Positions 500-21,647 of a DNA stretch of 21,647 bases are shown here, piece by piece (within the stretch, counting starts at the first letter, position 1; every line of letters begins with the position of its first letter). Source of the DNA: a virus; the IMG/VR virus record IMGVR_UViG_3300012849_000001, positions 1-21,647 of that record. The stretch is one strand, 5' to 3'. The notes under the pieces are model-generated. The model had not been told where the DNA came from and made no database searches. It saw nothing but the letters and a program-made list of their open reading frames with translations. Position numbers and translations under genes: made by a program.

Positions 500-766
500 T
501 CATCGCTTCGCCTCCGCGCCGTCGTAGAGCTCGACGATCCCGCGCGCCGTGACGTAGGCATCCTTCGCCGTCGCGAGACGCTGGCCAGCGACCAGCAGCG
601 GCATCACGATCGACTTGGCCTCGTCGGATTGCATCTTGTGGCCGGCCTCGAGGCGCGCCCTGAGCTCCTCGCCAGCTGCGCGGCAGCTCTCGTACTCGAA
701 AAGCGCGTCGAGCAGCTGGTTGCCCAGCTGGATCACCAGCTCCCGCGGATCCGTCGACGAGCTCAC
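500..766 (-). CDS. Hypothetical protein, 88 aa
   Basis: GTG 766..764 overlaps the TGA of the upstream gene (GTGA). The rest of track ORF 500..1009 overlaps the HTH gene and is Arg-rich. Confidence 0.6.
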   Translation of the reverse strand: MSSSTDPRELVIQLGNQLLDALFEYESCRAAGEELRARLEAGHKMQSDEAKSIVMPLLVAGQRLATAKDAYVTARGIVELYDGAEAKR

Positions 767-972
767 GACGCGATCCGCTCGCCGGCGACCGCCTCCAGAT
801 AGGAGCGGATCGATTCGCTGCTGTAGCGCCACATGCGCCCGCCGGGCTGCGCGCCGATGATGTCGCCTCGCTGGGCCATGCGTGCGAGAGTCTTGCGAGT
901 GATGCCGGATAGTGCCTCGGCCTGGCCGGCGGTGAGGTCGAGACGCGGCGCAATCGGGAGGTTGCTGGTCAT
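763..972 (-). CDS. Excisionase-family winged-HTH DNA-binding protein (Cro-like or Xis candidate), 69 aa
   Basis: LTAGQAEALSGITRKTLARMAQRGDIIGAQPGGRMWRY matches the excisionase/MerR-type HTH pattern. The gene diverges from the repressor-like gene. Trimmed to ATG 972. Confidence 0.7.
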   Translation of the reverse strand: MTSNLPIAPRLDLTAGQAEALSGITRKTLARMAQRGDIIGAQPGGRMWRYSSESIRSYLEAVAGERIAS

Positions 973-979
973 GAGGGCC

Positions 980-1009
980 ACGGTAGGCCTCAAAGGACAG
1001 ATCGGGCAA
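980..1009 (-). promoter_or_regulatory. Candidate leaderless promoter for the HTH gene: TTGCCC-N18-TACCGT, 7 nt before ATG 972
   Basis: The hexamers were read on the minus strand and the -10 fits TANNNT. No SD lies between it and the ATG. Confidence 0.3.
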
Positions 1010-1031
1010 GCGACACGCCCATACATGGCCT

Positions 1032-1044: not shown

Positions 1045-1061
1045 CGCCCTATCATGGCGAC

Positions 1062-1445
1062 ATGTCACTTCAGCAGAGCGTGCCGGCGCTTCGACCGGCG
1101 ATGGATGCCGAGATCGGGCGACGCGTGCACATGCGGATGTTCGATCGCCGAATCACCGGCGTGGCGCTCGCTCGGGCGCTCAACGTCGACCAGAGCGGCC
1201 TGAGCAAGCGTCTGCGCGGTGAGCGCGGATGGTCTGCGGAGAACCTGCGGGATGCCGCGGCGACCCTAGAAACGACGATCGCCTACCTCACTGGTGAGGT
1301 AGGCGATCCGTCCTGGTGCGCCCCCAGGGACTTGAACCCTGAACCCATTGATTCAGGACCGACCGACGAGGAGCTCGACGCCTGGCTCGCCGACGTGATC
1401 TCGATCGACTCGGCGCCCCGCTTCCGCGAGGCGGTGCCAGCATGA
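1062..1445 (+). CDS. HTH (XRE/Cro-CI-like) repressor candidate, 127 aa, containing the tRNA-like att core in codons 85-95
   Basis: HTH segment ITGVALARALNVDQSGLSKRLRG. Divergent arrangement with a second HTH gene, and int lies downstream on the same strand. Confidence 0.75.
   Translation: MSLQQSVPALRPAMDAEIGRRVHMRMFDRRITGVALARALNVDQSGLSKRLRGERGWSAENLRDAAATLETTIAYLTGEVGDPSWCAPRDLNPEPIDSGPTDEELDAWLADVISIDSAPRFREAVPA
1262..1273 (+). repeat. GACCCTAGAAAC motif, related to the inverted pair at 1642..1667
   Basis: Read directly; it lies 41 bp before the att core. Confidence 0.3.
1314..1357 (-). other. Putative attP core: tRNA 3' fragment (T arm + acceptor strand + CCA, 1314..1346) plus adjacent CCTGAA-N8-TTCAGG inverted repeat (1338..1357)
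   Basis: The minus strand reads GGGTT CAGGG TTCAAGT CCCTG GGGGCGC A CCA. No D arm or anticodon arm is present upstream, so it is not a complete tRNA gene. Confidence 0.65.
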
Positions 1446-1609
1446 AGTCCGTCGACGCGATGACGCTCGACGAGCTCATTGCAGCAGAGCGCGAGCTCGG
1501 TCGCCGCTGGGATGCCGCGTACGCCGCCCGAGACCTCGATCGCCTGGATGACGTCATGGCCGGCATCCGGATCATCTCGGCCGAGATCGCCCGTCGTGTG
1601 ACCGAGTGA
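1442..1609 (+). CDS. Hypothetical helical protein, 55 aa (below the ORF-track cutoff)
   Basis: ATG 1442 overlaps the repressor stop (ATGA). Translation is MKSVDAMTLDELIAAERELGRRWDAAYAARDLDRLDDVMAGIRIISAEIARRVTE. Confidence 0.5.
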   Translation: MKSVDAMTLDELIAAERELGRRWDAAYAARDLDRLDDVMAGIRIISAEIARRVTE

Positions 1610-1641
1610 TCCGGCCTATGTGCCGCTGCCGGAATGGGCTG

Positions 1642-1667
1642 GACCCTAAAACTGATGTTTCAGGGTC
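1642..1667. promoter_or_regulatory. Imperfect inverted repeat GACCCTAAAAC-TGAT-GTTTCAGGGTC, 13 nt upstream of the int start
   Basis: 10 of 11 arm positions are complementary. The arms match the motif at 1262..1273. Confidence 0.35.
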
Positions 1668-1679
1668 TACGTTCTCGTC

Positions 1680-2513
1680 ATGAGATCGCAGATCATTACT
1701 CCCCCGGAATGGCGCGCTCCCCTGGCGGGATATCTCGCCTGGCTGGCCGCAGTGCCGCGGCCGGCATCCACCCGCTATCAGCGCAGCTACCACCTCCGCC
1801 GCTTCGCGGCCGCGACCGGGCTCTCACCGCGCGCGGTGACGCATGACGACCTGATCACTTACCTCGGCTCGAACGGTTGGGGCGCGAGCACGGTCCACGT
1901 CGCCCGGTCCACGCTGCGCAACTTCTACACGTGGGCGCACCTGGTCGCGAAGATCGTCGATGAGGACCCGACGGTGCTGCTACCGTCGACGCGGCCGCGG
2001 GCGGGGGGCCCGCGGCCGGCTCCCGAGGCGGCGATCGCCGCCGGCATGAAGGGCAGCGACCCGCGCGTGCAGCTGATGATCCGCCTCGGCTCGCAGATGG
2101 GTCTGCGCTGCTGCGAGATCGCGCGAGCTCACACCGGAGATCTCCGACAGGATCTCCTCGGCGACTGGGTGATGAAGATCCGCGGCAAGGGCGATCGCAC
2201 GCGCGACGTGCCGGTGCCGGCGCGCCTGGCGCTCGAGCTGCTTACCCGGGATCCCGGGTTCCTGTTCCCCGGCAACGTCGACGGCCACCTCTCGGCCGCG
2301 TACGTGTCGAAGCTGCTCTCTCGCGCGCTGCCTGCCGGCGTCACTGCGCACATGCTGCGGCACCGGTTCGCGTCGCACGCATACGAGGGTGCAGAGCGGG
2401 ATATCCGCGCTGTTCAGGAACTTCTCGGGCACTCGAACGTCGCGACGACGCAGACGTACACGGCCGTGCCCGGCGGGGCGAAACGTCGCGCCGTCGAGTT
2501 CGCGGCGGCATGA
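1680..2513 (+). CDS. int: Tyrosine integrase (XerC/D-sized, 277 aa, no obvious arm-binding domain)
   Basis: Catalytic signature readable: GLRCCEI (Arg), KGDRTR (Lys), HMLRHRF (His-x-x-Arg), LLGHS (His), TQTY (Tyr). The C-terminus is ...RRAVEFAAA. Confidence 0.9.
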   Translation: MRSQIITPPEWRAPLAGYLAWLAAVPRPASTRYQRSYHLRRFAAATGLSPRAVTHDDLITYLGSNGWGASTVHVARSTLRNFYTWAHLVAKIVDEDPTVLLPSTRPRAGGPRPAPEAAIAAGMKGSDPRVQLMIRLGSQMGLRCCEIARAHTGDLRQDLLGDWVMKIRGKGDRTRDVPVPARLALELLTRDPGFLFPGNVDGHLSAAYVSKLLSRALPAGVTAHMLRHRFASHAYEGAERDIRAVQELLGHSNVATTQTYTAVPGGAKRRAVEFAAA

Positions 2514-2815
2514 TGTGTCCTATGAAACGTCATGTGACAGTGGTTACTGTCATTGCGCTCTCGACGATCGCGCTCTGCGGCTGCTCAGCTCCGGACCCCG
2601 AGCCGACCCAGGCGGAGAAGGCATGGCACAACTGCATCGAGGTACTGAGTGCGACGCCGAACGAGTTCACCGGCGACGACGTCACGCCCGAGTTGATCTG
2701 CAAGAACCAGCAGGAGACGTGGGACGACTTCGACGGTCAGTGGGTCGACGACGTCGCGCAGCGTCTGGCGTTCTACGACGTCAAGCTGTCCGACGTCGAC
2801 GTGTACACCGAGTGA
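2510..2815 (+). CDS. Putative secreted lipoprotein (moron; possible superinfection-exclusion factor), 101 aa; alternative start at 2522 (MKRHV...)
   Basis: Signal-peptide-like MKRHVTVVTVIALSTIALCGC with lipobox-like LCGC. The 5' end is less GC-rich. ATG overlaps the int stop (ATGA). Confidence 0.6.
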   Translation: MMCPMKRHVTVVTVIALSTIALCGCSAPDPEPTQAEKAWHNCIEVLSATPNEFTGDDVTPELICKNQQETWDDFDGQWVDDVAQRLAFYDVKLSDVDVYTE

Positions 2816-3191: not shown

Positions 3192-3488
3192 CTATGACAT
3201 GTCGTGTGACGTGTCCTGTGACGCGCGGGCGTGGCTGGCTCCTGAGGTGTAGCCGAATACGGTGCCGAGGATGCCGATGATGCCGCCGCCCCAGCCGGTG
3301 AGGATCTGGGTGGCGTTCTCGCTGAGGCCGGGGCCGGCGCTGGAGATCGCGTCCCAGAGCACGGCGACGCAGAACAGGTTGAGCGCGGTTGCCATGCCGA
3401 CGGCCAGGACGAGGGCGACGAGGGTCGCTCCCGTCTTGGCCGCGCGCGCGAGGGGGCTGCGTTGCGGTGGCAGGGTGGGTTCACTCAC
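3192..3488 (-). CDS. Holin-like membrane protein, 98 aa, two predicted TM helices
   Basis: Hydrophobic segments GATLVALVLAVGMATALNLFCVAVLW and ILTGWGGGIIGILGTVFGY. It lies immediately downstream of the endolysin and overlaps it by 8 nt. Confidence 0.65.
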   Translation of the reverse strand: MSEPTLPPQRSPLARAAKTGATLVALVLAVGMATALNLFCVAVLWDAISSAGPGLSENATQILTGWGGGIIGILGTVFGYTSGASHARASQDTSHDMS

Positions 3489-4119
3489 CGGTGATGGTGA
3501 GGCCGTCGAGCACGCTGGCCGGCTGCGGGCCGGCGACCTGGTCGACGGTAGGGTCGCGGCGGATGAGGTCCAGCTGCAGCCCGTTGTGGATGCGCTGCGC
3601 GGTGCCGGCGCCGAAGTTGATGAGGAACCAGCGTCCGTCGACGTCGGGGTCGATCTGCAGCAGGTGGTTCATGGCGTTCTCCTCGATCGGGGTGGGTGTG
3701 GGTGTGGGGCCGGTGATCGGGCAGTCGAGAACGTGGTCGGACCAGCCGAGGTACTCGCGGCCGGTCAGCGCCATGCGGCCGGCGATCGAGGTGAGCCCGG
3801 TCTGTCCCCAGGAGGGCTGGTCGGTCGCGGCGTGGTCGCCGTCGTAGGCGCCGGCGATGAACACGTCGCCGTCGGTGTTGCCGTCGTAGCGGGTGCCGAG
3901 CCAGATCGCCGCGCCCGGGGGTGGGTTCATGTCGCCCGGGTGGCGCCCTTCGGTGGCCTCCCACGCCAGGAACGCGGTCGGAATGGCGCCGTGGGCCGTG
4001 CTGGCGCCCGCATCCGCGTATGCCTGCCACACGTAGTACCAGCAGGCGCCGTGGCGTGAGAGCGGCTCGTAGCCGAGCAGGAGGTCGTGGGCGAGCTGCC
4101 CGTCGGTCGCGGTGCCCAT
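3481..4119 (-). CDS. Endolysin: N-terminal cysteine-peptidase-like domain (CHAP/NlpC-P60-like), TPTPTP linker, C-terminal putative wall-binding domain; 212 aa
   Basis: GACWYYVWQAY (candidate catalytic Cys) and GDVFIAGAYDGDH. Position is between tail fiber and holin. Trimmed from ORF 3481..4563 to ATG 4119 (TGATG overlap with the upstream stop). Confidence 0.7.
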   Translation of the reverse strand: MGTATDGQLAHDLLLGYEPLSRHGACWYYVWQAYADAGASTAHGAIPTAFLAWEATEGRHPGDMNPPPGAAIWLGTRYDGNTDGDVFIAGAYDGDHAATDQPSWGQTGLTSIAGRMALTGREYLGWSDHVLDCPITGPTPTPTPIEENAMNHLLQIDPDVDGRWFLINFGAGTAQRIHNGLQLDLIRRDPTVDQVAGPQPASVLDGLTITGE

Positions 4120-4871
4120 CAGCGTGCCCCTTCGAGCTCGGCGACGCGATCGCGCAGCTGCTGCACCTCGGCGTGCAGCTGCACGGTCTGCGCGAGCAGC
4201 AGCTGAATGTGGTCGATGCCCTCGACGCGGCCCTTCGCGTCGTGGATCACGAACCGGGCCAGGTCGGGGATCTCGGCCATGTCGTCGGCGATGTACCCGA
4301 GGATGCGGGTGCCGTCGCCGCCGCGCAGCTCGAACTCGGACAGCGGGATGCCGAACGCGTTGACGAGCGGGCGGGCGGCGCGGATGTTTTTCTTGAATCG
4401 GCGGGCGGATGCGCCGCGGCAGAGCCGGCCGTCGTTGTTGATGTACGCGACGGTGTATCCGGCCGACGCGGGGGTGGAGTTGGGCACGTAGATGTGGCCG
4501 CCGACGTTCACGTCGCCGCCGAACACGGCCGCGGCCGCGGCGATGCTCTCGTTCGTGTTCCACCGGTTCAGGCCGCTGTTCCAGCCGAACGACACCGGCC
4601 CGGTGCTCAGCGAGTCGTGGGTGTGCGCGGACGGGGGGAACGACGACGGCTTGCCCGACAGGTTCGCCCAGGTGATGCCGAGGTTCGTGCGTGCCTGCGC
4701 TGCTGTCGTGGCGCCGGTGCCGCCCTTGTTGACGGGCAGGCCGGTCGCGGGGACACCGAACGCGAGGATGTAGTCGCGGGTCTTGTTGATCTCGTCGTAG
4801 CCGAGCTTCAGCTTTGCCGTCGACGGGACCACGTCCATGCCGGCTGCGCCTGCAGCGTCACCATTCGCCAT
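4119..4871 (-). CDS. Tail fiber with C-terminal intramolecular-chaperone (peptidase S74-like) domain, 250 aa
   Basis: GGTGATTAAQARTNLG fiber motif, ASARRFKKNI resembling the S74 autocleavage motif, and a C-terminal coiled coil (LLLAQTVQLHAEVQQLRDRVAELE). Confidence 0.7.
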   Translation of the reverse strand: MANGDAAGAAGMDVVPSTAKLKLGYDEINKTRDYILAFGVPATGLPVNKGGTGATTAAQARTNLGITWANLSGKPSSFPPSAHTHDSLSTGPVSFGWNSGLNRWNTNESIAAAAAVFGGDVNVGGHIYVPNSTPASAGYTVAYINNDGRLCRGASARRFKKNIRAARPLVNAFGIPLSEFELRGGDGTRILGYIADDMAEIPDLARFVIHDAKGRVEGIDHIQLLLAQTVQLHAEVQQLRDRVAELEGAR

Positions 4872-4884
4872 CGTCGGTCTCCTC

Positions 4885-7062
4885 TCAGGGGGTGTAGGTC
4901 GCCCAGGTGACCGAGTCAGCGACGTCGGCCCAGGTCGTGTCGGCTGCGCCGGCCCACGAGTCGGCGGGGATCTCCTGCTGCCCCTTGGACGCGACCTGCA
5001 TGAGCCCGGTCGCGGTGTCGAACTGGACGGATCGGACCGTGCCGACGACCTGGCCGGATCCGGGCATCGACGCCCGCGACTGCATGCCCGGGGTCGCCCG
5101 GTAGTCCGTGAGCGACGTCACGCCCTGCACGCGGCCGCGAGCGGTCATGGCCGCCAGGATCGCCGCGGCCGCGCCCGGACCCGGATACGGGGTATCGCGG
5201 TACTCGACGAGCAGCACCTTGCCGGCAGCGCCGGCAGTGTCGTCCTTGGTGCGCGAGATCCCGTCCGCGTCGGTCCACGTGTAGCGGACGACCACGCCCT
5301 GCGCCCACACCTGCGCATCCTCACGGCTGATCAGGTCGTCGCCGGCGGTAGCGTTGCCGGCGGTGAGCACGACGCTGCCGTCGACGGTGTAGTCGGGCTT
5401 CACGAGCCGCCAGACACGCAGCTCGTCGCAGAACAGCCGCAGCCCGGCCGCGGTGACCAGCGCTTCCAGGAAGTCCCACGCGGTGGTGCCGGCGGACCAG
5501 ATCAGCGAGTCAGGGTCGATGCCGGGCTGCTTCGGCTTGCGGGTCGTGGCCGACGCGTGCGCGGGACCGAGGACCTCGTAGGTGTACTTCGAGTCGGCCG
5601 GGGTCGCACCGTCGAACCAGGTGATCGTGGTCGGGTAGACGCCCTCGTGCGCCATCCACGCCGTCGTGCGCAGCGTGTTCCCGTTCGCCCACTGCACACC
5701 GTCATCCGCATACACGAACGGGCCCAGGCGGGCGCCCACGGCGGGGATCTCGATCGTCCCCTTGACGAGCGTCCACGTGTTCACGGGCAGGTCGACGGTG
5801 GCGAGCTTGACACCGGTCTGCAGCAACTGCCCGTCAGCGCCGAAGATCTGACAGGAGAGCTTGACCTGCTTCGCTACCTGGGCGGACAGCGCCCAGCAGT
5901 ACACCGTGTAGGTCTTGCCGGGCGTGACCGGGACGTAGGGCACGAGCGTCGCGGTCTGCCCGAACGCGCCGCCCTGACCGTTGCCGCTGTTGCCGCTGAA
6001 GGTGGTCAGCGTCGCAGTGGTGAGGTCCGCGGCCGCGGGGATCGACCCGGCCGCCCAGCCGGTCTCACGCGACAGGTTGCCGTTGGTTCCGCCGGCGATC
6101 CAGTTGCCGACGATCGAGCGCACCGCCGGGTTCGGGAACAGCTGCGTCAACTCCCACACCGGCGTCACGTCCGCGTCGGTGCTGGTGCCCAGTTCGAGAA
6201 TCTCGAAGTCGTCGAACCGGAGTCCCGCGCTCGTGCCTCCTGCCGTCGCGGTCCCGGCGACACCGATCTCGTGCGTCGTCGCGGTCGCGACGAAGTCGCG
6301 CGAGACGTACTGGTAGGTGCTCGTCGGAGTGATGCCGGTGATGGCGGTCATGCCGGTGATCACGATGCGCGCGTTCGTCGCGCTGATGTTCCGCGTCCAC
6401 GCGCCGACGCGGTAAGTCTTGCCGATCGTGAAACCGGCGAACGTCTTGCGCGCCACGACGTCGCCTGCACCCGCACTGCTCAGACGGACGATCGCAAGAC
6501 TGTGAGTGCCGGTGCGCGGGCTCGACGTCGACCAGATCGCGTTCGTCGAAGTGTCGGCGATCCATCCGTCGATGCCGGCCTCGTAGCCGTCGTAGACGAG
6601 ACGGTCGAGCGTCGCGTCGGGGATGACCTTGCTCAGCACGTAATTGCATACCGACCGGAGTGAGCTCGCGAGACTCCAGGGGCCGGTGTCGTCGACGAGG
6701 GGCGCGTAGTCCTGCAGCAGCGCCTCGTCGGATGCGAGCTCGAGCGTGACGGTGCGGTCCTCAAACTGGACGCGCCTCGATCTGACGCCGAGGTCGAATC
6801 GGCGGCCGGCGTCGGGGACCCAGACGGTGTCGCCGGCACCGTTGACGGCGAACGCGCCGGTGACGGTCGGTGCGAGCGTCGCACGCAACGGTGTGCGCGG
6901 GTCGATGTCGATCGCGGCCTCGAAGTCGTCGAGGTGCAGCACGACCGTCGACTGCGCGTACGGGGACCAGGACGAGTCGATCGTGACCGGACCCTCGATC
7001 GCCGCCGCGCTCTCGCTGCCGAGCGTGACAGCGCAGTACGGGCGCAGCAGCTGCGTGCTCAC
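4885..7062 (-). CDS. Large tail tip / receptor-binding protein with two CBM-like (galactose-binding-like) modules, 725 aa
   Basis: Two similar segments carry GKTYRVGAWTR and GKTYTVYCWAL motifs. Position follows the Dit-like gene. GTG 7062 overlaps the upstream stop (GTGA). Confidence 0.65.
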   Translation of the reverse strand: MSTQLLRPYCAVTLGSESAAAIEGPVTIDSSWSPYAQSTVVLHLDDFEAAIDIDPRTPLRATLAPTVTGAFAVNGAGDTVWVPDAGRRFDLGVRSRRVQFEDRTVTLELASDEALLQDYAPLVDDTGPWSLASSLRSVCNYVLSKVIPDATLDRLVYDGYEAGIDGWIADTSTNAIWSTSSPRTGTHSLAIVRLSSAGAGDVVARKTFAGFTIGKTYRVGAWTRNISATNARIVITGMTAITGITPTSTYQYVSRDFVATATTHEIGVAGTATAGGTSAGLRFDDFEILELGTSTDADVTPVWELTQLFPNPAVRSIVGNWIAGGTNGNLSRETGWAAGSIPAAADLTTATLTTFSGNSGNGQGGAFGQTATLVPYVPVTPGKTYTVYCWALSAQVAKQVKLSCQIFGADGQLLQTGVKLATVDLPVNTWTLVKGTIEIPAVGARLGPFVYADDGVQWANGNTLRTTAWMAHEGVYPTTITWFDGATPADSKYTYEVLGPAHASATTRKPKQPGIDPDSLIWSAGTTAWDFLEALVTAAGLRLFCDELRVWRLVKPDYTVDGSVVLTAGNATAGDDLISREDAQVWAQGVVVRYTWTDADGISRTKDDTAGAAGKVLLVEYRDTPYPGPGAAAAILAAMTARGRVQGVTSLTDYRATPGMQSRASMPGSGQVVGTVRSVQFDTATGLMQVASKGQQEIPADSWAGAADTTWADVADSVTWATYTP

Positions 7063-18617: not shown

Positions 18618-18844
18618 GATTCCGCTTCCACGCACGCCGAGCAGAGGTAGCCGTCGGCGTTCTCCTCGACCCACCAGCAGCCGCCGATGCACGCCTCGTC
18701 CTCGGTGCATCCGCACACACGGCACGTCGCGTCGACGTAAACCTCGACATTGTCGAGACCCGCGACTCGCTGCTCTAGATCCTCGATGAGCTCGGCCGGT
18801 GCCGTCGACGGGACGTGGATCGTGATCGCGAGCTCGACGGTCAT
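18614..18844 (-). CDS. Cys-rich small protein, 76 aa
   Basis: Trimmed to ATG 18844 (ATGA overlap). CRVCGCTEDEACIGGCWWVEENADGYLCSAC has 7 Cys in 31 residues. Confidence 0.6.
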   Translation of the reverse strand: MTVELAITIHVPSTAPAELIEDLEQRVAGLDNVEVYVDATCRVCGCTEDEACIGGCWWVEENADGYLCSACVEAES

Positions 18845-19263
18845 CCGCGGATCCTCTTGATCGTGGCGAGCGGGATCACGAGGGATCCGTTGGGGCCGAA
18901 CGGGACGACGCCGAAGTAGTCGCGGTGGGTGGCGATCGCGTGCCGGCTGATGCCGAGCACGCTGGCGGCGACGTCGAGCGGGAGGAACGACGGCAGCGTG
19001 TCGAGGGCCGCGTCGAGTGCCTGCGCGACGGAGACCGCGAGCTCGTCGACGGACTGCCGTCGTTGCTGCAGCTGCACGACGTCGCCGGTGCGGGGGGTGC
19101 GTTGCGCGTCGGTCGGGATCATCCAGCGGCCGCGTTCGTCCTGGTACGCGCCGGGCAGTTCGCCATCGTCGAGGTAGCGCTGCACGGTGCGGTCGGTCTT
19201 GCCGATGAGTGCGGCGTACTGCGTCTTCGTCACATACTGGGTGGTGTCGTAGGAAAGCGTCAT
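18841..19263 (-). CDS. DNA-binding protein with two excisionase-type HTH modules, 140 aa
   Basis: N-terminal YAALIGKTDRTVQRYLDDGELPGAYQDERGRWMIP and C-terminal VAASVLGISRHAIATHRDYFGVVPFGPNGSLVIP. Confidence 0.65.
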   Translation of the reverse strand: MTLSYDTTQYVTKTQYAALIGKTDRTVQRYLDDGELPGAYQDERGRWMIPTDAQRTPRTGDVVQLQQRRQSVDELAVSVAQALDAALDTLPSFLPLDVAASVLGISRHAIATHRDYFGVVPFGPNGSLVIPLATIKRIRG

Positions 19264-21024: not shown

Positions 21025-21647
21025 GACGTCGCCTCCGGGATGGATAGCTGCATCGCGTCGAGCAGCTCGCGCAGCGCGTCGACGAGGCGCCCGGTTGTGT
21101 CGGTGTTGGCGTAGGCCTCAGCGGCGTGCCGGCGATACACGCGGCCGTAGGCGCCGCCGGCGAGATCGACTGCGATCGCCGACACGTACTCGTAGCCGGC
21201 CGGGTCGTCCGCGATGCGGTGCGTCTCCCAGTACCCGGCTGGCCGAGCGTCGCCGTCGATGCCGTACCCCTCGCTCACGAGGACCAGGCCGAGCGGGGTG
21301 AGCTCCTCGGGGAACTGCATGATCCCGATCTGCCTGACCGCGCCCGCGAGTGTGCGCAGCACGGCGAACGGTGAGGCGAAGCTCCAGACGGAGTCCGGGA
21401 ACGCGAGAACGCCGCGCAGAGCGCCCTCGCGGTCCTGACACAGCACGGCCAGCGTCGGCGCCTCGTCCCACACGTTGGTGCGCCGGAAGTCGTCGATCAC
21501 GGCCGTCAGGAAGTCGTCGATGCTCTCGTCGGGCTCATCGTCGGCGCGCCGGTGGCAGGCACACACGCATGATGCGTCGTTGCACCATGCGTGCGCGCCC
21601 ACGTCGCAGGACGACGAGATCTCCTCGCGGTCCCGCGGCCGCGTCCA
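21021..21647 (-). CDS. Junction-spanning zinc-ribbon protein, C-terminal 208 aa of about 244 (continues upstream at 124..231)
   Basis: The ORF is open to the window end. A second Cys cluster is CDVGAHAWCNDASCVCACH. The C-terminal domain is unrecognised. Confidence 0.7.
   Translation of the reverse strand, partial: WTRPRDREEISSSCDVGAHAWCNDASCVCACHRRADDEPDESIDDFLTAVIDDFRRTNVWDEAPTLAVLCQDREGALRGVLAFPDSVWSFASPFAVLRTLAGAVRQIGIMQFPEELTPLGLVLVSEGYGIDGDARPAGYWETHRIADDPAGYEYVSAIAVDLAGGAYGRVYRRHAAEAYANTDTTGRLVDALRELLDAMQLSIPEATS
21525..21647. repeat. Terminal direct repeat, copy 2 (identical to 1..123)
   Basis: Read directly; it lies inside a minus-strand CDS. Confidence 0.95.

Follow-up and report, generated by a model that had tools for sequence, protein, structure and literature searches.

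A stretch of 21,647 nucleotides (nt) of viral DNA, positions 1 to 21,647 of the IMG/VR virus record IMGVR_UViG_3300012849_000001 and called the window here, probably contains a lysis-lysogeny module that works as an integration-dependent immunity switch of the kind known from the mycobacteriophage BPs and from the phages of cluster CW. The features of such a switch are present: the core of the phage attachment site attP lies inside the repressor-like gene rep (codons 85 to 97 of 127), a host tRNA gene is available as the bacterial attachment site attB, a stop codon arises at the junction of both, and the integrase, Int, is an "armless," homologous one. An earlier reading of the letters alone, named the original prediction below, had derived this architecture from the 3' end of a tRNA located inside a repressor-like open reading frame (ORF) next to an integrase gene. 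Since phages of Mycobacterium and Gordonia are already known to use this mechanism, the window provides a well-supported new example and not a new mechanism.

The minus strand of positions 1314 to 1346 reads GGGTT CAGGG TTCAAGT CCCTG GGGGCGC A CCA, and direct reading agrees with the original prediction that this is the 3' end of a tRNA. No complete tRNA was detected by ARAGORN in the whole window, indicating that the match is a fragment. While its nature as a fragment was recognized correctly, its extent was not, since the match continues for 7 nt beyond the limit given originally, into the 3' strand and the loop of the anticodon stem. The complete core of 1314 to 1353 has the minus-strand letters AATCAATGGGTTCAGGGTTCAAGTCCCTGGGGGCGCACCA and is an exact 40-nt copy of a part of tRNA-Lys(CTT). 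It starts with two bases of the anticodon loop, continues through the 3' side of the anticodon stem, the variable loop, and the T arm, and ends with the acceptor strand, the discriminator base, and CCA. A 39-nt pattern that included 37 core bases was present without mismatch in 56 species genomes (one genome scanned per species), and these loci belonged mostly to Leifsonia, followed by Microbacterium, Kocuria, and Rothia. The matching loci that were checked with ARAGORN were all genes for tRNA-Lys(CTT), and many of them encode the CCA end, which leads to 40 of 40 identical positions compared to the window. The search for a host tRNA, a check proposed together with the original prediction, consequently ended at tRNA-Lys(CTT) with 37 to 40 identical nt. 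None of 100 shuffled versions of the window contained a match to the 40-mer, not even at a tolerance of up to 3 mismatches. In IMG/VR, a degenerate 30-mer made from the fragment matched 21 stretches, and the whole genes among them were called tRNA-Lys(CTT) by ARAGORN.

The core is maintained in the related loci L001, L002, and L003, with variants that are known from other tRNA-Lys genes. In L003, the T stem CAGGG/CCCTG is changed to CTGGG/CCCAG, which is a compensatory change, and a G/A variant in the acceptor strand also occurs among the relatives. Codon differences within the core were non-synonymous in 14 and synonymous in 3 cases among the homologues. This ratio is expected if the DNA follows the tRNA sequence rather than that of the protein. 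The fragment is located in frame in the ORF 1062 to 1445, as had been predicted, where it encodes W85-C-A-P-R-D-L-N-P-E-P95.

Overlapping the core is an inverted repeat, CCTGAA-N8-TTCAGG at 1338 to 1357, the existence of which was likewise borne out by direct reading. It is retained in L002, with five of six bases in L001, and it is absent from L003, a distribution that weakly supports a function as a pair of core-type sites for Int. An explanation of this repeat as the remnant of an anticodon arm was rejected because it overlaps the T stem and the identity to tRNA-Lys ends in the anticodon loop. Similarly, a tRNA of type II (Leu or Ser), with its long variable arm, was rejected as the source of the fragment by the ARAGORN results for the matching loci. 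The hexamer CCTGAA/TTCAGG occurs 15 times in the whole window compared to 3.8 expected occurrences, with four copies between 1038 and 1664 (at the rep promoter, in both arms of attP, and in a palindrome upstream of int), and this enrichment could reflect codon usage or a shared half-site for protein binding. Sites resembling GACCCTRAAAC are present at 1262 and 1335. Both kinds of sites were considered as additional Int sites but not adopted, because they are not conserved in the relatives and the search was post hoc.

To follow the consequences for Rep, the window was integrated in silico into the tRNA-Lys gene of Leifsonia sp. McL0607. The resulting attL contained an intact tRNA-Lys, as identified by ARAGORN, and a Rep of 97 amino acids (aa). 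The host contributes an A instead of the phage C at position 1354, which changes the Ser98 codon TCA into TAA and thereby shortens Rep from 127 to 97 aa. Concerning the originally predicted exchange of the last 30 to 40 residues for host-encoded sequence, the loss obtained in silico is of this size (30 residues), but no host-encoded residues are added, because the stop is already codon 98.

Relatives of the phage display the same junction. In the provirus L024 of an isolate genome, a Rep with 43% identity reads antisense into a complete tRNA-Lys gene and ends with ...CTPRDLNPEPTD*, the stop codon TAA being the complement of the anticodon-loop bases 35 to 37, and the region flanking this tRNA resembles Leifsonia loci. 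The same fusion of rep and tRNA-Lys with the same TAA was found in L009, L010, L013, and L017 with other helix-turn-helix (HTH) repressors, and the core variant of L010 is exactly that of the window. The opposite end is represented by L007, in which a host terminator, the core, the rep tail, and int follow in the order of an attR. Thus, attL in L024, L009, L010, L013, and L017 and attR in L007 place the junction where it had been predicted, in relatives and not in this phage. The contig L011/L015 is in the viral form and has a copy of the core at each end, which suggests a circular assembly. The int end of the integrated L009 is represented by L084; the provirus as stored lacks an attR core, so that a complete attL/attR pair is not available from one contig. 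For this Rep lineage, two scans of metagenome contigs from JGI, which covered sequences of the L001-to-L003 type only, yielded neither an attL nor a junction of rep with the core. The gaps N{3,6} and N{5,9} in these scans are too short for the variant in the window with its extra codon W85, and a pattern for fusions of the rep core with tRNA-Lys that admits this codon is GCCTACCTCNNNGGNGAGNTAGNCGAN{5,12}TGCRCCCCCWGGGACTTGAACCCWGAACCCAYTGATTAAGAG. A truncated prophage Rep with a junction-made stop codon is therefore present in silico and in relatives, and is assigned to this phage by homology, no lysogen of it having been seen.

Rep itself matches HTH_3 with an E value of 1.4e-4, just under the Pfam cut-off (22.3 compared to 23 bits), the family PHROG 2328 "transcriptional repressor" with 2.9e-9, and the annotated immunity repressor of the Gordonia phage Dogfish with 41% identity over 76 aa. 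Only four close homologues were found among 5.8 billion proteins, all of full length. No homologous repressor ended upstream of position 1314, an outcome that would have argued against the original prediction; instead, all of them read through the core and possess the conserved tail. The distal part of this tail, LADVISIDSAPRFREAVPA, is conserved in all four homologues, with partly synonymous variation. Its motif ISIDSAPRFREAVPA recurs in P0011, a protein with a core from a different tRNA (WAPWGSNPRPADYK), and the motif shared by window positions 1389 to 1442 and the C terminus of P0011 is (I/V)ISID(S/Q)APRFRE(A/L)(V/M)PA. The presence of this motif next to a different tRNA core indicates that the tail is a separate conserved module.

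A profile search with the Rep family returned 1,767 cluster representatives, in which long and short forms were both present. Among the best 145 of these 1,767 representatives, which were used for the counts of length and tail, 72 contained a recognizable peptide encoded antisense to a T arm. In 16 short forms (mean of 101 aa), the protein stops no more than 6 residues after this peptide, and in 53 long forms (mean of 124 aa) it continues for 10 to 54 residues. The comparison of viral and prophage repressor lengths proposed earlier has consequently a bimodal result across the family. Alanine is the last residue of 41 of the 53 long forms (77%), and 20 of these 41 end in AA. The tail of the Rep in the window ends with AVPA, unlike LAA or ALAA, so that a function of this tail as a degron is suggested by the family-wide terminal Ala only. 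An LAA ending does not seem to be required, however, because the Rep of BPs ends with KAS and is nevertheless stabilized by the exchange A135E (PMC4557955). For comparison with a potential host, the transfer-messenger RNA (tmRNA) of Microbacterium ulmi (L028, 7211 to 7579), 3.4 kb from a candidate attB in tRNA-Lys, encodes the tag ADAKRTDFALAA, which ends with ALAA.

Int is assigned to Phage_integrase (E value of 2.7e-16), contains a weak SAM-like domain and no further domain besides these two, and has conserved the catalytic residues R, K, HxxR, H, and Y. Over the full length, Int shares 41% of its residues with BPs gp32. Its identity is 45% to 46% to the integrases of GMA5 and GRU3 (44% to 46% when SallySpecial and Emperor are included) and about 42% to other integrases of mycobacteriophages that carry the annotation gene 32, which is also the gene number of int in BPs. 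With the Int alignment as query, 176 relatives were obtained from IMG/VR, compared to a single one with Int alone, and 80 loci were kept for counting. An antisense tRNA 3' fragment is located just upstream of int in 34 of these 80 loci, 37 of which offer less than 200 nt of upstream sequence. Many of the fragments are inside HTH ORFs with tails ending in AA, VA, or LAA. The Int relatives themselves end in AA in 47 of 80 cases (59%), compared to 14 (2.7%) among 522 control ORFs of these loci. As to the Int in the window, its translation confirmed the predicted end RRAVEFAAA, and at the sequence level it carries a C-terminal, putatively ssrA-like tag, EFAAA. In L001, the name of which suggests nanopore sequencing, the int homologue (4135 to 4933) is split over two frames next to an intact rep and attP core, possibly through a sequencing error in a homopolymer or through decay of the integrase.

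Four groups of phages have to be compared with the window. Integration-dependent immunity has been defined experimentally in BPs (cluster G), Brujita, and Charlie (PMC3694055, PMC4557955, PMC9262239). In BPs, TGA arises from a Cys codon through the host base adjoining the core, and 33 residues are lost (PMC9262239, PMC4557955). The window shares with BPs the cassette of rep, int, and a divergent cro, the attP in rep across the 3' end of a tRNA, the stop codon at the junction, the armless Int (41%), and the Cro-like HTH protein (31%). Rep is shortened from 136 to 103 aa in BPs and from 127 to 97 aa here, so that about 30 residues are removed in both. BPs differs in that it uses tRNA-Arg instead of tRNA-Lys and reads the tRNA in another frame, its Rep is not detectably homologous, its genome is 42 kb in size, int is described as cotranscribed from the rep promoter only, and no strong hairpin is located beside the core.

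The phages of cluster CW are Gordonia phages of about 17 kb that were described in 2017 to have integration-dependent immunity, their attP being 37 bp long and their attB lying in tRNA-Lys (PMC5559632). They precede the window as small, non-mycobacterial phages with this switch, so that this aspect of the original prediction is not new, and with these systems known, the phage described here is a further case of a known type in a new host family. The genomes of this cluster (Grutrevirus with GMA5 and GRU3, and the relatives Jeanie, McGonagall, SallySpecial, and Emperor) have 16 to 18 kb, so that the phage in the window is about 4 kb larger. The gene order is the same, with the lytic genes on one side, followed by rep, int, and a small ORF, and attP within rep is likewise a copy of the 3' part of tRNA-Lys, which the Rep of GMA5 and GRU3 reads antisense in the same frame (CAIRDSNPEPAD compared to CAPRDLNPEPID here). 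GMA5 also possesses an extra ORF between rep and int (PMC5559632). On the other hand, no similarity exists on the DNA level, the hosts are Gordonia compared to the tRNA-Lys(CTT) variant of Microbacteriaceae here, the N-terminal domain of Rep belongs to another HTH family, and the tails end with AAA or TAA instead of VPA. Only Int (45%) and the architecture are shared and no megablast match was found; the phage seems to work like those of cluster CW, its closest analogues, but is not a member of this cluster. GRU3 (L117) contains two antisense copies of the tRNA-Lys T arm upstream of int, at 3514 and 3591 and thus 77 nt apart, and this segment may be a duplicated core.

The closest annotated Rep is found in the Dogfish/Nyceirae group (Nyceiraevirus) with its 41% identity over the HTH domain. 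Here, too, rep is followed by int and a divergent HTH gene is present, the Rep of Dogfish contains a tRNA antisense segment and ends with VAAA, and its Int ends with NLAA. The genome of Dogfish has 42 kb, however, and a different tRNA is targeted. This group was called only a "possible" integration-dependent system (PMC5559632). The Bifidobacterium prophages Bb423phi2 and 689b-1 were interpreted as having integration-dependent immunity related to cluster CW (PMC6109161). They are small, with int beside one att site and the repressor beside the other, and belong to a different host branch; this likeness is by description only.

The part of rep upstream of the core contains a second element. A hairpin at 1277 to 1308, separated by 5 nt from the end of the tRNA and with the minus-strand tail GTCGTTTCTA, was flagged by a terminator scan. 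Its fold has a free energy of -29.8 kcal/mol and a z score of -6.6, which is rank 34 of 4,320 windows in this GC-rich genome. In the four homologues, two pairs changed in a compensatory manner, and three changes result in G·U on the minus strand and C·A on the plus strand, so that 98.2% of the hairpin cells are paired on the minus strand compared to 92.9% on the plus strand. This covariation in four sequences is modest evidence for a hairpin formed by a minus-strand transcript. Hairpins of this kind with T-rich tails occupy the same place in unrelated rep families and in GMA5 and GRU3 (z scores of -4 to -7), where they also follow the tRNA end inside rep. None exists in BPs, L104, L152, and L009.

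Phages may supply a replacement terminator to the tRNA gene into which they integrate, which is a general notion. The host tRNA-Lys genes have their own terminators at the respective place. In a lysogen, the tRNA promoter is directed through rep in the antisense and into cro and the lytic genes in the sense orientation, and this means that the phage would need a terminator, for which the only room would be inside rep. In the literature searched, which did not cover the Broussard 2013 paper, no description of a terminator inside a repressor ORF or attP was found. The 3' third of rep may accordingly be read as three overlapping codes, for Rep, the 3' half of tRNA-Lys, and a terminator. That this is so, with the terminator as a general part of such modules and possibly a separate, palindrome-controlled int promoter in the window, is a tentative proposal to which we assign somewhat less than an even chance. 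If true, the embedded terminator would illustrate a way of shielding a prophage from a strong promoter of the host, and as part of rep it would be a compact example of overlapping codes. In L064 (Microbacterium kyungheense), the tail of the native tRNA-Lys terminator, TGTCGTTTCTGG, resembles the phage tail GTCGTTTCTAGG at window positions 1267 to 1276, a likeness that may come from convergence or common origin.

The ORF map and the HTH_17 match confirmed the predicted arrangement of rep, a 55-aa ORF, and int in the same orientation with a divergent Cro- or Xis-like HTH gene, and also the predicted ATGA overlap (1442 to 1445) of the rep stop codon with the start of the 55-aa ORF. The latter has no homologue in L001 to L003. 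The divergent protein (763 to 1026, minus strand) matches Pfam HTH_17 with an E value of 2.6e-8 and is 31% identical to gp34, "Cro," of BPs, and gene callers assigned a 72-aa HTH_17 product to this locus in sister contigs.

A scan for consensus sigma-70 sites did not reveal a promoter. The motif TANNNT followed at 6 or 7 nt by ATG occurs five times in the window, and three of these sites are exactly at rep (1050), int (1668), and cro (985, minus strand). The remaining two, at 3258 (plus strand) and 13955 (minus strand), are possible additional leaderless starts. The −10 site of the putative rep promoter P_rep is TATCAT or TATGAT plus ATGTCACT in L002 and L003 and TATCGT-GGCGAC-ATGTCACT in the integrated L009, and equivalents of the putative cro promoter P_R were read by eye from the alignment of L002 and L003. 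Although int is co-oriented with rep, it is preceded by a putative promoter of its own, TACGTT-N6-ATG, and a palindrome upstream. The region of 1642 to 1673 is nearly identical in L002, despite being non-coding and having diverged flanks, and is a candidate for an operator combined with a leaderless int promoter, P_int. Together, these motifs suggest three leaderless transcripts for rep, cro, and int, including one from a separate P_int. Concerning the predicted separation of int from the rep promoter upon integration, the transfer of int to attR holds, and due to the putative int promoter this separation may matter less. A palindrome at P_rep, TATTCAG-C-CTGAATC at 1031 to 1045, was examined as an operator and rejected; it is unique in the genome but not conserved in L003 and L002. 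All features are listed in Table 1.

Table 1. Position of the features of the lysis-lysogeny module in the window. The strand is given as + or −; a period indicates a feature without orientation.
Feature	Position	Strand	Remarks
Cro-like/Xis-like HTH gene	763..1026	−	Divergent from rep; likely real start ATG 972, 69 aa
Putative P_R −10 site, TACCGT	980..985	−	7 nt upstream of cro ATG 972; presumably leaderless
Putative P_rep −10 site, TATCAT	1050..1055	+	6 nt upstream of rep ATG; presumably leaderless
rep, HTH repressor-like gene	1062..1445	+	Viral form 127 aa; predicted prophage form 97 aa
Intrinsic-terminator-like element	1267..1308	−	In rep codons 69 to 83; perfect 15-bp repeat 1277-1291/1294-1308
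attP common core	1314..1353	−	tRNA-Lys(CTT) nt 37 to 76 including CCA; plus strand encodes Rep residues 85 to 97
Inverted repeat CCTGAA-N8-TTCAGG	1338..1357	.	Candidate pair of integrase core-type sites around an 8-bp spacer
Codon 98, TCA (Ser)	1353..1355	+	1354 is the first base past the core, C in the phage and A in the host
Rep tail, codons 99 to 127	1356..1442	+	With codon 98, the 30-residue tail lost on integration; candidate degron
55-aa ORF	1442..1609	+	ATGA-coupled to rep (1442..1445); variable between relatives
Palindrome GACCCTAAAAC-TGAT-GTTTCAGGGTC	1642..1667	+	Followed by TACGTT (1668-1673), 6 nt before int ATG; non-coding
int, armless tyrosine integrase	1680..2513	+	277 aa, ends with FAAA

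From these data, the following sequence of events can be proposed. Recombination of attP with the host tRNA-Lys gene would rebuild the tRNA at attL and let Rep end at residue 97, while the 30-residue tail, the 55-aa ORF, and int would move to attR, about 21 kb away. The full-length viral Rep should be unstable or inactive due to its conserved tail (...FREAVPA), and stable immunity repression at P_R would be provided by the 97-aa prophage form. Int with its FAAA end may be sensitive to proteases, and in this case how often lysogeny occurs would be set by the protease activity of the host. The hairpin within rep would stop transcription from the host tRNA promoter, which otherwise would continue antisense through rep and sense into cro and the lytic operon. 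The genes rep, cro, and int would each be expressed as leaderless transcripts from a TANNNT −10 site, with P_int being controlled via the palindrome at 1642 to 1667. A putative P_int resembles, by analogy, the "P_I" step in the model of Broussard and Hatfull, in which lambda-like switches evolve from integration-dependent ones with this promoter as an intermediate (PMC3694055). If int indeed has its own promoter, the phage could be a natural test case for the evolutionary route proposed for such switches.

Several observations weigh against an integration-dependent switch and need to be considered. None of the 56 tRNA genome loci with the exact core variant carries a prophage, and a search for an integrated rep at these loci returned chance open frames of high G+C content only and no HTH repressor. 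No prophage was found of this phage itself or of any close relative (more than 60% Rep identity); the four close Rep homologues are all in the viral form, as are all contigs inspected of the 11 with an identical Int. Similarity between Rep and BPs gp33 was not detectable, the C terminus FREAVPA of Rep ends in Ala but is not LAA-like, and no Rep operator was identified. A separate P_int would depart from the canonical rep-int operon, and BPs has no strong hairpin at the equivalent place. Finally, the divergent HTH_17 protein also matches PHROG families of recombination directionality factors (RDFs) or excisionases. An RDF would be atypical for an integration-dependent system, and this protein is the only RDF candidate.

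Some of these points would agree with a conventional switch that merely has an oddly placed attP. Rep would be truncated upon integration, but both forms would be stable and active, immunity would not depend on integration, and the tail would function in oligomerization, sensing of a co-factor, or covering of sites that flank attP. The Rep end VPA, compared to ALAA in the ssrA tag of the host family, fits such a switch, as do the conservation of about 20 residues in the distal tail, which is more than a minimal degron needs, the seemingly separate promoter of int, and the similar DNA binding of both BPs Rep forms (PMC4557955). We nevertheless regard this explanation as unlikely, because Int and the architecture are homologous to experimentally characterized systems, terminal Ala or AA is strongly enriched family-wide in Int and in the long form of Rep, and the BPs Rep is stabilized by A135E although it ends with KAS (PMC4557955). 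The ORF 1062 to 1445 might also encode another Xre-type regulator, for instance of int or of excision, with the true repressor located elsewhere. The HTH_3 score below the Pfam cut-off, the missing operator, and the missing similarity to BPs gp33 would be compatible with this. The position opposite a Cro-like gene is, however, the canonical one for the repressor, the matches include PHROG repressor families and annotated immunity repressors, among the ORFs examined none besides it was noticed as a candidate HTH repressor, and prophage-truncated forms exist in the family as expected for a maintained lysogenic regulator. This makes a different regulator quite improbable. Even less credit can be given to the tRNA fragment being a non-functional relic, a scar of imprecise excision or captured host DNA in a phage that no longer integrates at this site. 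It would explain why only viral-form copies of the phage were seen. On the other side, the match of 40 out of 40 positions shows no decay, relatives follow different host tRNA-Lys variants (compensatory changes included), no catalytic residue is missing from the intact integrase, and independent assemblies break at the boundary of the core.

An integration-dependent switch in this phage would have consequences beyond the window. No published integration-dependent case in phages of Microbacteriaceae was found in the literature searched. Experiments on the compact three-gene switch have so far been confined to mycobacteriophages, and with the window the switch would extend to phages of this family (Leifsonia or Microbacterium). 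The 176 Int relatives in IMG/VR and the 1,767 cluster representatives of the Rep family suggest that the design is far more common than published. The predicted pair of attP and Int, together with attB in tRNA-Lys(CTT), could serve in integration vectors for Leifsonia and Microbacterium.

Concerning the phage as a whole, nt 1 to 123 of the window are identical to nt 21525 to 21647, and this terminal repeat of 123 bp indicates a circular (terminally redundant) assembly and hence a non-integrated, complete genome with a length of about 21,524 bp. Genes for the major head protein, portal, large terminase, tape measure, tail fiber, and HNH are encoded on the minus strand. The G+C content of 68.9% fits Microbacteriaceae, and the window is likely the genome of a complete temperate tailed phage of this family, with Leifsonia or Microbacterium as the likely host. 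A megablast search with the whole window against 50,697 phage records gave zero matches. An identical Int was present on 11 contigs from several samples, and every contig inspected was in the viral form. Two of these, both short-read contigs, start at or in the core: the first base of L168 is window position 1314, the left edge of the core (TGGTGCGCC...), and L170 starts at position 1322 inside it. Such starts are expected if attP of the phage and tRNA-Lys of the host coexist in a sample, leading to a branch in the assembly graph. On the lytic strand, the only other DNA-binding match, at 18841 to 19263, included families of DNA-binding proteins, small terminases, and MerR-like regulators. Downstream of int and overlapping its stop codon, an ORF at 2510 to 2815 (plus strand) encodes 101 aa with a signal peptide and a lipobox (...ALCGC/S, the slash indicating the cleavage position) and, therefore, a putative lipoprotein. 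The identity to its counterpart in L002 is 62%. It would adjoin attR in a lysogen and is a candidate for an exclusion or moron gene expressed from the prophage.

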